Shown here: piece after piece, positions 42,601-49,000 of the stretch
Numbering within the stretch: position 1 is the stretch's first letter
Layout of the letters: each line of letters begins with the position of its first letter
From: an uncultured Akkermansia sp.
GTDB taxonomy: Bacteria; Verrucomicrobiota; Verrucomicrobiia; Verrucomicrobiales; V1-33
DNA length: 64,000 bases
Reading direction: 5' to 3'
NCBI GenBank assembly: GCA_964523105.1
Contig: CAZFZN010000018.1
Location: 21,786 to 85,785, forward strand
Made by a program: the position numbers and the translations under genes
The notes under the pieces: generated by a model
Seen by the model: the letters and a program-made list of their open reading frames with translations, nothing else
Databases searched by the model: none
Told to the model about the DNA's origin: nothing

Positions 42601-45600
42601 TCCTCCGCGTGGAGCGCGTCGGAATCCACGACAACTTCTTCGAACTTGGCGGCGACTCCATCCTCTCCATCCAGGTCATCGCCCGCGCCCGCGAAGCCGG
42701 CCTGACGCTCACTCCACGTCAGTTGTTTGAGAATCCAACCGTGGCTGCACTGGCCGCTCTAGCCATGGACACACCGGCGACCACCACGTCCAGCGTCCCC
42801 GCCGAAATCACCGGCCCGTTCCAGCCCTCGCCCATCCAGGAATGGTTCCTGACGCAGGAACTCGAAGGCGCGAATCACTGGAATCAGACGTTCCTCTTCA
42901 CCGTCAGCGAACGCCTCGACTCCGCCGCTCTCACCGCTGCACTGCGCGCCATCATCGCGCATCACAGCGCGCTGCGGCAGCGCTTCATCCGCCGCAACAA
43001 CGTCTGGGAAGCCAGCATCCACGCGGAGCCCGACGACGACATCCTCACCTGCCACGACTTCTCCACCTGCGAGAATGGCCGCCTCGTGCGCCAGATCGAA
43101 CGCGCCTGCAAAGTCGAGCAGGCCCGCCTCAGCTTTGAGTTCGGCCCGCTGCTGCGCGCTGCCTACATGGACTGCGGCGAAGACCGCCCCGGCCGCCTGC
43201 TTCTCACCGTCCATCACCTCGCCGTGGACGGTGTCTCATGGCGCATTCTCCTCGAGGACGTAGAAAAAGCCTATTGCCTCGCCGCCGTCGGAAAGCCCAT
43301 CACACTCCCCGCTGCCACCGCGCCCTTCTCCGCATGGGCCGGACAGGTACGCCAATGGGCAACATCCGCCGCCGCCCAGGCCGAAGCCGCCTTCTGGCAG
43401 AACGCCCTCAAGCAAAGCGAATCCGCCGCCACGCTCCGCAGCGAAGGCGACGACGGCTACGGCTCCAACACCGAAGGTGACACCTGGACTCTCTGCACCC
43501 GCCTGAGCGCCCCCGAGACCGACGCCCTCCTCCAAAAAGTTCCCGCCGCATTCAACGCCCGCATCAACGCCCCGCTGCTTGCCGCGCTCGTCCACTCGAT
43601 TCATCAGGCACAGCCTGTTCCCGGCGGCCTCACGATTCACCTCGAAGGCCACGGCAGAGAATCCCACATCGGGGGCGACATGGATGTCTCCCGCACCGTG
43701 GGCTGGTTCACCACCATCTTCCCCGTCTGTCTTCAGCCTAACACGGACCACGCAGCCAGCATTCGCGCCGTGCAGCAGCAGCTCGACGCCCTGCCTGGCA
43801 ATGGCAGCGGCTTCTCCGCGCTCGGTCTCAAGCACGAAGCCGTCATCCTGTTCAACTACCTCGGCCGCATGGACAGCATCACCGACGGCAGCGAACTCTT
43901 CCATTTCGCGCCCGAGTCCACCGGCCCCTGGCACTGCCAGGCCGCAGAACGTAAGTACCAAATCGAGATCAACGCCCGGGTCATCGGTGGCGAACTCGAA
44001 GTCGCATGGACCGCCGGGCGTCAGTTGCACAGTGAAGAGCAAATCCAGCAGTTCGCCGACGGCTTCCAGGCCGCGCTCCAGCAAGTCATCGCCGCCAGCG
44101 GCACCGTCGCCGCCGCACCCCACACCGCTCTCAGCGGACTCGATGAAGACACCATCGCCCGACTCATCAAAGGCCAGACCGGAATCGTGGAAATCAGCGC
44201 GCTCTCGCCGATGCAGCAGCTCTTCTACAGCGCCAGCCTGACCAGGCCCAACGCCGGCTATGATCAATGGCACTGCCACCTCCACGGCCCGCTGGATATT
44301 GAAAAACTCCGCGCCGCCTGGAGCCAGGTCATCGCCCGCCACAGCATCCTCCGCAGCAGTTTCCACAGCGCCGGCCTGCCGCATCCCGTGCAGATCGTCC
44401 GCGAAGGCATCGAGCCGGAATGGACCATCATCGAAGGCGGTAGTAACGCCGACAAAACCATCGCCAAACTCCTCGCCGACGACGCCGGCCAGCGCAACGA
44501 CCTGACAAAGCCGATGCTCAGCCGTTTCACCCTCGTCCGCATCGCCGCAAATCACCATTTCCTCCTCTGGAGCCTCCCCGACCTTCACCTCGACGGCTGG
44601 TCCTGGCCGATCGTCTTCAGCGAAGTGAATGCAGTAGCACAGGTTTCCAGCCTGTGTGGCGTTTCAGCGGGCTTCCAGCCTGCTGAAGCATCCAGTGCAG
44701 GCGCGAAGCCCGCGCAATCCTTCACCGCCGGGACGGCTCTGCTACCGCCGGCGCAGCCCTACCGCACCTGGCTCGAATGGCTCTCGAAACAGTCGGATGA
44801 AGCTTCCCGCACCTTCTGGAAACAAAACCTCGCCGGTTATACCACCCCCACTCCGCTCCCGTCCGACCTGACGCCCGGGCCGAAAGCCTCACGCCGCACC
44901 GCCGAAGTCAGCACCAATTTCAACGGCACTGCCATCACTGCCGCCGCCCGTTCACTTTCCCTCTCACCCGGAGCCTTCGTTCAGGCCGCGTGGGCGCTCC
45001 TCCTCTCCCACGCTTCCGGTGAGGACGACATCGTCTTCGGCACCGCGTTCTCCGGCCGTCCCGCTACATTGCCCGGCGCGGATAGCATCGTCGGTCCTTT
45101 CGTGAACAATCTGCCGGTGCGCCTGCCCATCGACCGCGACGCCCCCGCCTCATCGCTGCTCCGGTCGCTGCAAGCCGCGCTGCTCGACCTCAGCGAGCAC
45201 CAATACACGCCCGTCACCGCCATCCAGGACTGCACGGACATCCCGTGGAAGAGCCGCCTCTTTAACAGCCTCGCCGTCTTCCAAAACTACACCGTCCCGG
45301 ACACCGCGAAGCATTTCGGCGAAGCCAAGATCACCAATTTCACCGGGCCCATCCACACCGCCTATCCGCTCACCCTCGTCGTCACGCCCGGCGACGAATG
45401 GAATGCCGCACTCATCTTCCAGGAATCCGTCTGCACGCGCGCGAGAGCGCAGACCATACTGAATGACTTCGCCGCCCTCCTCAGCGCGCTGGCCGAAAAT
45501 GCTGCCGCCACCTGCGCAGAAATCCTGACCCGCTGTCAGCTCCCCGCCGCGTGCGCCACCACCAGCGCCGCCACACCCCTGCGCCGCCCTGGCGGCACCG

Positions 45601-46073: not shown

Positions 46074-49000
46074 ATGCCTGCTGAAACAGACACTCCTCTG
46101 GATGGAATCGCCATCGTCGGCATGGCCGGACGCTTTCCTGGCGCGCCGGATATTGACGCGTTCTGGCGCGTCCTGACCGAAGGCCGTGAGACCATCACCA
46201 CCTTCGACCGCAGCACACTGCCCGCTGAAGAGCCGGCTAATGATGCCGACTACGTCCCCCGTCGCGGCATCCTGGAAAAGCCGGAGTGGTTCGACGCCGC
46301 ATTCTTCAACATCGCTCCGCGCGAAGCCGAAGTCATGGACCCGCAGCAGCGCGTCTTCTTGGAACTCGCATGGCACGCGCTGGAAAACGCCGGCTGCGAT
46401 CCGCAGCAGTTTGCCGGCTCCATCGGCGTCTTCGCCGGGATGAGCAACAATTCGTGGCTCCAGCACCGTGTTCTGCCCAACAGGGAACTCCGCCAGCAGG
46501 TCGGCTACGAGAACGCGATGATCTGCAACGAGAAGGACTATCTCGCCACGCGCACCGCGTACAAACTGAACCTCCGCGGCCCTGCGCTCAACATCTACAC
46601 CGCGTGCAGCACCTCGCTCGTGGCCGTGTGTCAGGCGGTGCAGGCGCTGCAAAGTTTCCAGTGCGACGCCGCTCTCGCCGGCGGCATCAGCATCAAGTGG
46701 CCGCAGGAACGCGGCTTCACTGCGCAGGAGGGCAGCATCTATTCGCCCGACGGCCACTGCCGCCCCTACGATGCCGCCGCCACCGGCACCGTCTTCAGCA
46801 ACGGCGCGGGCGTCGTCGTATTGAAACGACTCGAAGACGCCGTGCGCGACGGCGATCACATCTGGGCCGTTATCAAAGGCGCGGCGCTCAACAACGATGG
46901 CGCGGATAAAGTCAGCTTCACCGCGCCCAGCGTGGACGGGCATGCAGAAGTCATCTCGCTGGCCTACGCGCTCGCCGGATTCGAGCCGGACACCATCGGC
47001 TACGTCGAAGGCCACGGCACCGCCACCCCCATTGGCGACCCCATCGAAGTCGCTGGCCTGACAAAAGCCTTCAGACAAGGAACAGAGCGCACCAACTTCT
47101 GCGGTTTGGGATCGTTGAAGTCCAACACCGGCCACATGGACGCCGCCAGTGGTGTGGCTGGATTGATAAAGGCCACACTGGCTGTGCATCACGCGAAGCT
47201 GCCGCCGACGCTGCATTTCAAATCGCCAAACCCGGCGCTGATGCTGGAGACCACGCCGTTCTTCGTCGTGGATAAGCTCCAGGACTGGAAATCGAACGGC
47301 CCGCGCCGCGCCGGCGTCAGCAGCTTTGGCGTTGGCGGCACGAACGCGCACGTGGCATTGGAGCAAGCCCCCGCAACCGTGGCCCAGGCTTCCAGCCTGT
47401 GTGGCGTGTCCGCGGGCTTCCAGCCTGCGGAAGCCAGTGCAGGCTGGAAGCCCGCGCAAAACGTCACAGCCAGGATGGCTGTGCTGCCGCTCTCCGCCAG
47501 ATCCCCCGCCGCGCTTGATTCCATCTGCGAAAACCTCGCCGCATGGCTGGAAACTCAAGACGCCCGGCTCGCCGACGTCGCATGGACTTTACAAACTGGA
47601 CGCCGCAGCTTCCCCCACCGCCGCGTCATCGTTGCTGCGAACAAATTGGAAGCCATCGCGCATCTCCGCGCCAAAGCCGCGGCGGTGAAACAGGACCGAA
47701 GCAATGTCCCCGTCGTGTTCATCTTCCCCGGTCAGGGCGCCCAGCACCTGAGGATGGGCGCCGGGACTTACGCAGCGGAGCCGGTCTTTCGCGAAGCTTT
47801 CGATCAATGCGCGGACCTTTTCGCATCACACGGGATCGATCTGCACGCGCTGCTCAAAGTGGCCGGGGCTGCCAGCCCGCAGAGTGAAGACTCCGGGCTG
47901 GAAGCCCGGGCCACGGACGCCGCCGCTCTCAATGAAACGCGTCACACCCAGCCCGCGCTGTTCGCCGTCGAATATGCTCTCGCGGTTCTACTAACATCGT
48001 GGGGCTTCAAGCCCGCCGGAATGCTAGGCCACAGCATCGGTGAATATGTCGCCGCCACCCTTGCCGGCACGTTTTTCTTGGAAGACGCCGTAAAGCTGGT
48101 CGCCGCGCGCGGTCGCATCATGTTCGCCCAGCCTGCCGGCTCCATGCTCGCCGTGCGGCTCCCGGAAGCGGAAGTCGCCGCAAAGCTGCCGGCCACGCTC
48201 GACATCGCCACCATCAACGGCCCCGGCAACACGGTCGTCGCCGGGCCGACAGATGACATCACAGCCTTCGCAGCTGTATTGGAAAAAGACGGCATCAGCG
48301 CCACGGTGCTGAAAACCAGTCATGCCTTTCACAGCCGCATGATGGACGGCGCGCTGGAGGAATTCCGTGCGGCTTTTGAAGGCATCACGCTCCGCGAGCC
48401 GGAGACGCCGTGGATTTCCAATGTGTCAGGCAAAACGATCACCGCCGCGGACGCGACCTCGCCCGACTACTGGGTGCGCCACCTCCGCAACGCTGTGCGC
48501 TTCGCCGACGGCATCGCCGCTCTGACCGCGGAGGGACCGTGCGTGTTCATCGAGTACGGCCCGGGCACATCGTTCGCGCCGCTCATCCGCCAGCATCCTG
48601 CGGCGAAGGACTGCGAATGCGTGTCGCTGTTCCCGCCTGCCAAAGACGAAGGCACCGGAGAACATCGTGTGCTGCTCGCCGGCATTGGCAGGCTGTGGAT
48701 GGCGGGCGTGACGATTGATTGGAAAGCCCTGCACAGCGGGCCGCGCAGCAAGGTGCCGCTGCCGGGCTATCCATTCGAGCGGCAGCGGTTTTGCCCGGAT
48801 GTGGCGTTGCCGGCGGGCACGCAGCGGGATGGTGAGGGGTGGTTGATTTACCCTGATACCATGGCGGGCGATCTCTCACGCCCCTCCGGGGCTGAACAGA
48901 ATTTGGTGGGCGGCATTTCCGGCGGTTCCGCTTCGCTCCACCACCGGCTAATATCTGACGGCCCTCCGGGCCTCCAATCCATCAGTGCCTCCCGTGCGGC

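Follow-up and report, generated by a model that had tools for sequence, protein, structure and literature searches.

The window analysed here is a 64,000-nt stretch (64 kb) of contig CAZFZN010000018.1 (positions 21,786 to 85,785, forward strand) from assembly GCA_964523105.1 of an uncultured Akkermansia sp. It contains two neighbouring assembly-line genes of the antibiotic type, a nonribosomal peptide synthetase (NRPS) gene and a hybrid polyketide synthase (PKS)-NRPS gene, and each of them carries in its coding sequence one copy of a palindromic element of about 110 nt. The boundaries of the two copies were set by comparison with a wider family of repetitive extragenic palindromic (REP) elements. 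The two genes, the two copies and their central hairpins are as follows:

39603-45929, plus strand: host gene 1, NRPS with domain order C-A-T-C-C*-T (open reading frame (ORF) list, Pfam); 100% identity to database protein P0001
44634-44745, plus strand: copy 1, compound REP element of 112 nt, GTAG...CTAC, in-frame peptide VAQVSSLCGVSAGFQPAEASSAGAKPAQSFTAGTALL (BLASTN, family comparison)
44667-44713, plus strand: central hairpin of copy 1, arms GCGGGCTTCCAGCCTGC and GCAGGCGCGAAGCCCGC complementary at 15/17 positions, 13-nt loop
46014-55226, plus strand: host gene 2, hybrid PKS-NRPS with domain order KS-AT-T-aminotransferase-C-A-T-TE (ORF list, Pfam, orthologue alignment)
47379-47487, plus strand: copy 2, compound REP element of 109 nt, GTGG...CTGC, in-frame peptide VAQASSLCGVSAGFQPAEASAGWKPAQNVTARMAVL (BLASTN, family comparison)
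47411-47456, plus strand: central hairpin of copy 2, perfect 18-bp arms (47411-47428 and 47439-47456), 10-nt loop

Both gene frames are uninterrupted, with 2108 codons in the NRPS and 3070 codons in the PKS-NRPS, whose true start is probably the ATG at 46074, matching the orthologues. Copy 1 lies in the C* domain, between the helix after the catalytic motif and the PYRTWL helix. Copy 2 directly follows the KS motif GTNAHV in the KS-AT linker domain, within the Pfam match to the KS C-terminal extension, where 135 residues are spanned for 110 model positions. The placement of the copies in a C* domain and a KS-AT linker, made in an earlier note from the letters alone, was confirmed by Pfam and, for the C domain, by an AlphaFold2 model and Foldseek.

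BLASTN inside the window aligned the two copies with 88.5% identity over 78 nt (E 7e-18), in agreement with the near-identity over about 75 nt claimed earlier. A repeat search recovered the same pair as 89% over 56 nt plus 79% over 66 nt (families D15 and D14). The inverted repeat of copy 2 is perfect, as the earlier note had it, but its arm is 18 bp rather than 17 bp. The core 14-mer GGCTTCCAGCCTGC occurred 13 times in the window at two mismatches or fewer, against 1.24 expected, and none of 100 shuffles reached 13. Single-strand folding gave −75.4 kcal/mol for copy 2 (z −6.9) and −55.8 kcal/mol for copy 1 (z −3.6). The copies share the spacer TGTGGCGT and the loop CCAGT, both subfamily-specific. 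They are read in a common frame (..AQ[VA]SSLCGVSAGFQPAEAS(S)AG[AW]KPAQ..) and neither breaks its ORF, as had been claimed. Three frames are open in copy 1 and five in copy 2.

Alignment with orthologues showed that both sites are empty elsewhere. At site 1, the interval from ..VFSEVN to PYRTWL.. holds 42 residues in the window and 13–20 in seven full-length orthologues (P0002-P0008, 67–81% identity), and the insert is also missing in the more distant homologues P0014-P0030. Three syntenic metagenome loci (L001-L003) have the same NRPS followed by the PKS-NRPS gene, with an upstream CN-hydrolase gene in L001 and L002. Their KS-AT linker has 19–23 residues, compared with 42 in the window. By the DNA alignments, site 1 has gained a net +84 nt and site 2 about +63 nt. 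An ancient linker shared with the orthologues, which the earlier note had named as the alternative to insertion, is ruled out by these alignments, because the residues are absent at site 1 in P0002-P0008 and at site 2 in L001-L003. Parsimony favours gain of both inserts in the lineage of the window.

The C* domain was modelled with AlphaFold2 using 29 homologues. The mean pLDDT of the model was 88.7, and its sole segment below 50 was residues 183-201, inside the insert (about residues 171-208), which lies between helices 161-177 and 213-221. Foldseek matched the model to NRPS condensation domains such as PvdL C3 and SrfA-C, with TM values of 0.78–0.84. The insert is modelled as a low-confidence loop on a confident C-domain fold, and its peptide is predicted to be disordered. 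In the same C* domain, at 44590-44610, SLPDLHLDG (DLHLDG) replaces the motif HHxxxDG; it is retained in orthologues P0002-P0007, and P0008 deviates at the first residue only. This shared replacement suggests that the terminal C domain of the NRPS may not be a canonical condensation catalyst.

Alignment of the PKS-NRPS gene with L001-L003 revealed at least 3–4 more window-specific palindromic inserts, and the strongest inverted repeats of the window all lie within this gene:

47859-47914, plus strand: third copy, simple inverted REP dimer of the same family (GTGGCCGGGGCTGCCAGCCCG...CGGGCTGGAAGCCCGGGCCAC) in the AT domain, 56 nt, 24-nt arms 88% complementary, z −7.7
48874-49143, plus strand: long inverted-repeat element in the post-AT linker, core arms 48933-48970 and 49044-49081, z −6.3
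49413-49468, plus strand: inverted REP dimer with a GTAG tag, from a sister family (core GGCATCCTGCC), in the carrier-aminotransferase linker, 18-nt arms 94% complementary
51383-51582, plus strand: long imperfect palindrome of 200 nt, in frame within the PKS-NRPS C domain, 60-nt arms, z −5.2

The third copy lies within the Pfam AT match and is read in a different frame from copies 1 and 2 (..SGLEARA..). A 57-nt segment at this site is missing in L001 and L003, and L002 has an unrelated shorter stretch there. About 170 nt of the element at 48874-49143 and about 180 nt of the palindrome at 51383-51582 are missing in L002 and L003; no related copy of the latter was found in any of the retrieved loci. 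The dimer at 49413-49468 encodes ..VAWASCPPATDRGQDAPAA.. (..DRGQDAPAA..), and its status as an insertion, with a net change of +4 to +7 aa, is less certain. The right arm of an insert in L001 has the same GGCAGGATGCC unit and likewise encodes ..RGQDAPA... The arms of the 48874-49143 element hold units resembling Acido-Lenti-1 (Rfam sub-threshold, 29 bits against a gathering score of 37), which suggests that this 'sRNA' (small RNA) family may be a REP-type repeat unit. A window-specific insert of 12 aa in an A domain overlies a weak palindrome at 53692-53752 (24-nt arms, 75% complementary; z −2.2) and is not convincing.

The orthologous clusters carry inserts of their own. L001 has a GTAG dimer of the same family (GTAGCGGGGGCTTCCAGCCCCC...GGGGGCAGGATGCCCCCGC) at 10872-10931 in its first C domain, which is missing in the window and the other orthologues. 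L003 has a GTAG dimer with perfect 28-bp arms in the PKS post-AT linker (9204-9297) and an inverted repeat with 40-nt arms in the NRPS-PKS intergenic spacer (6326-6506). Because five to six independent inserts all leave the two very long ORFs of the window open, the genes appear to be under selection and the inserts tolerated. Another explanation of the inserts would be an assembly or binning artefact, that is, repeat-induced misjoins in a metagenome-assembled contig: REPs can confuse assemblers, and the source protein comes from one NCBI contig of 140 kb and is the single member sequence of its cluster, but both flanks of every insert are collinear and in frame with orthologous genes and analogous inserts occur at other sites in independent assemblies of related clusters, so we regard this explanation as very improbable.

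The representative genomes of GTDB were scanned for the hairpin core GCTTCCAGCCTGC, 4–24 nt, GCAGGCNNGAAGC. At least 120 stretches were found, mostly in metagenome-assembled genomes (MAGs) of Planctomycetota and Verrucomicrobiota, and individual MAGs hold many loci (more than 12 in the Planctomycetota MAG JACOUH01). The family core is GGCTTCCAGCC. In 154 distinct hairpins the palindrome runs exactly 9 nt past the searched core and ends in GTGG (79) or GTAG (36), with CCAC or CTAC as the mirror image. In the outer stem, positions 5–8 are paired in 85–93% of these elements, compared with 41–70% in shuffles, and the pairs include compensatory GC, CG, TA and AT types. Each element is therefore a dimer, joined tail to tail, of a REP unit tagged GTAG or GTGG. 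The basic unit consists of GTrG, the stem ..CAGGCT, the loop TCC and the stem AGCCTG.. (a GGCT-TCC-AGCC mini stem-loop as the core). Two traits of GTAG-type REPs, the terminal tetranucleotide and the inverted hairpin pair with compensatory pairing, are present.

Copies 1 and 2 of the window belong to this family in a nested four-unit form, with an inner inverted pair (the 17–18-bp hairpin) inside an outer inverted pair, CACAGGcTTCCAGCCTGTG ... CACAGCCAGGATGGCTGTG. The order is outer unit GTAGCACAGGtTTCCAGCCTGTG, spacer, inner inverted pair, spacer and inverted outer unit CACAGCCAGGATGGCTGTGCTrC. A compound pattern matched 43 metagenome stretches, including soil metagenomes, and the four-unit architecture was among them. 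The same architecture of about 112 nt occurs in MAGs of Chthoniobacterales and other Verrucomicrobiota (L009, L036, L050, L051, L071, L093 and L126) and in L125, a record labelled Bifidobacteriaceae. The four-unit consensus is cGGAACACAGGCTTCCAGCCTGTGCGGCCnGCGGGCTTCCAGCCTGC-loop-GCAGGCTGGAAGCCCGCnGGCCGCACAGCCAGGATGGCTGTGTTCCg. RNAalifold predicted 38 pairs over the whole element, and in the window copies the two ends depart from the consensus in a paired manner (GGAAC..GTTCC to GTAGC..GCTAC). One MAG holds L050 and L051, near-identical copies with unrelated flanks, and the Chthoniobacterales MAG JBBQJR01 has three near-identical compound copies. The REP family with this core is widespread in the Planctomycetes-Verrucomicrobia-Chlamydiae (PVC) superphylum and apparently undescribed so far.

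Other classes of element were considered. A search of Rfam gave no RNA family over the element; the only nearby match was the sub-threshold Acido-Lenti-1 match in a different insert. Terminator and promoter scans were blank over the elements, which rules out intrinsic terminators. Inverted repeats form the two ends (GGAACACAG..CTGTGTTCC), yet no target-site duplication is present. The flanks (..GAATGCA|GTAG..CTAC|CGCCGG.. and ..GCAACC|GTGG..CTGC|CGCTCT..) carry no direct duplication, which excludes a MITE (a miniature transposable element with inverted repeats) derived from a DDE-type insertion sequence, with target-site duplication.

Residence within intact coding genes, the trait of Rickettsia palindromic elements (RPEs), was also found outside the window. 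Twenty hairpin-spanning open frames were tested against Pfam, and only Pfam-supported candidates were counted, because analysis of stop-to-stop open frames is confounded by the high G+C content. At least nine genes with Pfam-supported domains hold an element of the family in frame:

L030: leucyl-tRNA synthetase (LeuRS)
L093: alanyl-tRNA synthetase (AlaRS), element of the compound type
L119: anthranilate synthase I
L046 and L015: two PSCyt/DUF1549 proteins
L117: GH2-malectin enzyme
L025: DUF499 protein
L064: DUF1156-type protein, with two in-frame copies
L121: histidine kinase, in the C-terminal tail

Depending on the frame, the peptides are AGFQPA...AGWKPA, QASSL...QAGSL or RLEAC, and GLEARA was also seen. 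The consensus copy L050 is stop-free in all six frames. The majority of the compound copies lie between genes or close to gene ends. As different frames are translated in different proteins, the DNA palindrome and not the peptide is what is conserved.

This bears directly on the possibility that the insert encodes a peptide that is ancient or functional, namely a docking or regulatory loop under protein-level selection in which the palindrome is incidental. Copies 1 and 2 do encode nearly the same peptide and the ORFs are still intact. Against this, none of the orthologues has the insert, even at 67% identity and lower; other proteins and the AT copy read this DNA family in different frames, which points to conservation of the DNA; disorder is predicted for the peptide; and the stem covariation keeps DNA pairing rather than codons. 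We find a selected peptide hardly credible. A word-indexed protein search with the 43-aa peptide of copy 2 gave no candidate, but it also missed P0001, with its 16-residue identical stretch, and is uninformative.

Movement of REP-type elements, in the form of single-stranded hairpins, is attributed to the REP-associated tyrosine transposase (RAYT), an HUH/Y1 enzyme. A profile built from three Y1_Tnp genes in REP loci retrieved proteins named REP element-mobilizing transposase RayT or REP-associated tyrosine transposase. A RayT-type gene of L171 lies within an array of GTGGCACCGGCTTCCAGCCGGTG REPs that match the 11-nt core exactly. The RAYT genes of L170 and L174 stand between inverted GGGGAGCrCAGGCTGCCAGCCTG repeats with one mismatch in the core, and the left arm of the AT-domain copy in the window is this same one-mismatch variant. 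RAYT-REP linkage is thus shown, in other organisms, for variants with the same or a one-mismatch core. RAYT/Y1_Tnp-like genes were also met by chance in REP loci, every one of them inside a host ORF:

L060, 591-1889, and protein P0121: in an RdgB/HAM1 host
L064, 20-3184: in a DUF1156-type protein beside DUF499
L093, 3-2930, minus strand, and protein P0122: in an AlaRS host
Proteins P0124 and P0208: in a RecG/DEAD helicase host

In L060 a perfect terminal inverted repeat of about 34 nt bounds the transposase, and a 432-aa ORF continues straight across. A transposase translated as part of a housekeeping protein, as these sequences appear to indicate, looks unusual.

Very probably, each of the two segments of about 110 nt is a copy of a palindromic, non-autonomous mobile element from the REP/REPIN (paired REPs forming a hairpin) class, which moved into the NRPS and PKS genes and was tolerated there in frame. 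The earlier proposal of a mobile palindrome inserting in frame is supported by the empty orthologue sites, the dispersed family in other genomes and the in-frame copies in unrelated housekeeping genes. The label RPE-like, also proposed, holds for the behaviour of the element and not for the element itself, which is a GTAG/GTGG-tagged REP/REPIN and not an RPE. The copies would have landed in the two genes after the split from the nearest sequenced relatives, presumably by RAYT-driven transposition in the source genome. We propose that the inserts survived because three circumstances coincided. The net length change, small accompanying deletions included, is a multiple of three; in most frames the G+C-rich palindrome brings hardly any stop codons or none; and the sites are a surface loop between the C-domain halves, an inter-domain linker and an AT-domain loop. 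The extra 20–36 residues would then form a floppy and probably neutral passenger peptide.

Several results weigh against this reading. The elements, at 112 and 109 nt, are not multiples of three in length and are longer than the stretches gained (net +84 and about +63 nt), so an accompanying deletion, now beyond reconstruction, is needed in each event. A RAYT or Y1 transposase gene was looked for in the 64-kb window and not found. Only three copies of the family are present in the window, all within 3.3 kb inside two genes and none intergenic. An exact scan of the JGI metagenomes for the window-specific subfamily gave zero matches. In addition, copies 1 and 2 share frame, orientation and subfamily spacers, so one may stem from the other by local ectopic copying.

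The last point leads to the strongest alternative, a local segmental duplication or gene conversion in which part of the PKS linker, with a palindrome already in it, was transferred a single time to the neighbouring NRPS gene, or in the opposite direction, without a transposase. It would account for two copies alike in frame and orientation only 2.7 kb apart, for their common subfamily-specific spacer and loop, and for the lack of a further subfamily copy in the window or the metagenomes searched. Yet both copies stop at the family termini (GTAG/GTGG ... CTAC/CTGC) and bring no flanking host sequence along. The third copy in another frame and the other palindromic inserts in the same gene pair do not fit a single copying event, nor does the same-family insert gained at a different site by an orthologue. 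Such copying accounts for one copy at most and leaves the origin of the first unexplained. We therefore consider it unlikely, and favour insertion of a mobile REP-type element.

REP elements of the GTAG and CGTC types have been described by Di Nocera, De Gregorio and Rocco in 2013, with GTAG REPs in the PVC superphylum (PMC3733652). Opitutus terrae has 70 intragenic entries, and its in-frame dimers encode 20–30 aa (PMC3733652). The family of the window resembles these and other GTAG REPs in its short G+C-rich GTAG units (GTGG in O. terrae GTAG-20), frequent inverted dimers, PVC hosts, many in-frame intragenic copies and, for variants in other genomes, RAYT association. In contrast to the O. 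terrae REPs, the core GGCTTCCAGCC and the peptides GFQPA, GWKPA and QAGSL are missing from that intragenic table (PMC3733652), the window copies are nested four-unit elements of about 110 nt, and several inserts are packed into two assembly-line genes. RPEs, as summarised from Ogata et al. 2000 in PMC3733652 and in the Delihas 2011 review of in-frame fusions of small repeats (PMC3184786), are likewise palindromes of about 100–150 nt that reside in frame in functional genes and encode a passenger peptide at tolerant positions. They belong to another host clade. RPE-4 and RPE-6 are CGTC REPs (PMC3733652), whereas the window family is of the GTAG/GTGG type; by this tag difference, membership in the RPE-1 to RPE-10 sequence families is unlikely.

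As in the REPIN-RAYT systems of Pseudomonas and enterobacteria (Bertels and Rainey 2011, PMC3116915; Nunvar et al. 2010), an inverted REP pair forms the hairpin and RAYT genes are flanked by cognate REPs (L170, L171, L174). However, classical REPINs are almost wholly extragenic, whereas the window elements are nested double dimers in coding sequence, and RAYT linkage comes here from sister variants in other genomes. Small repeats in NRPS/PKS genes have precedents in the in-frame REP dimer (37 aa) of the P. syringae NRPS Psyr_1958 (PMC3733652, Additional file 3) and in the microcystin synthetase MITEs (Fewer et al. 2011, as reviewed in PMC3184786). In these accounts both are single events, and the cyanobacterial MITEs inactivate genes. 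The window instead has at least five inserts side by side in unbroken ORFs, and the orthologous clusters differ reciprocally in the inserts that they have. In-frame intragenic REPs are thus already published for Rickettsia RPEs, Opitutus terrae and one P. syringae NRPS. The 2013 findings cover most of the features, and the peptides are missing from the 2013 table, so the element is of a known kind, and what is new is the family and its setting.

Elsewhere in the window, a 3456-codon ORF at 11437-21807 contains tandem repeats with a spacing of about 294 nt (repeat families D1-D5), and a tRNA gene lies at 57441-57513 (Rfam, 72.8 bits).

The finding leaves the known behaviour of such elements unchanged. 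Gene callers will render the REP family with core GGCTTCCAGCC as the recurring pseudo-motifs AGFQPA, AGWKPA, QAGSL and RLEAC. It is a long shot that in this verrucomicrobial lineage REP/REPIN insertion goes beyond being tolerated and repeatedly supplies modular megasynthases with new loop and linker sequence, with its own set of inserts in each orthologous cluster, and that strong hairpins were perhaps co-opted, for example as translation-pausing or mRNA-processing sites at domain boundaries. The inserts mark natural sites that tolerate 20–60 extra residues, namely the inter-lobe loop of the C domain, the start of the KS-AT linker, the AT loop, the post-AT linker and the carrier-aminotransferase linker, and these sites are useful for assembly-line engineering.

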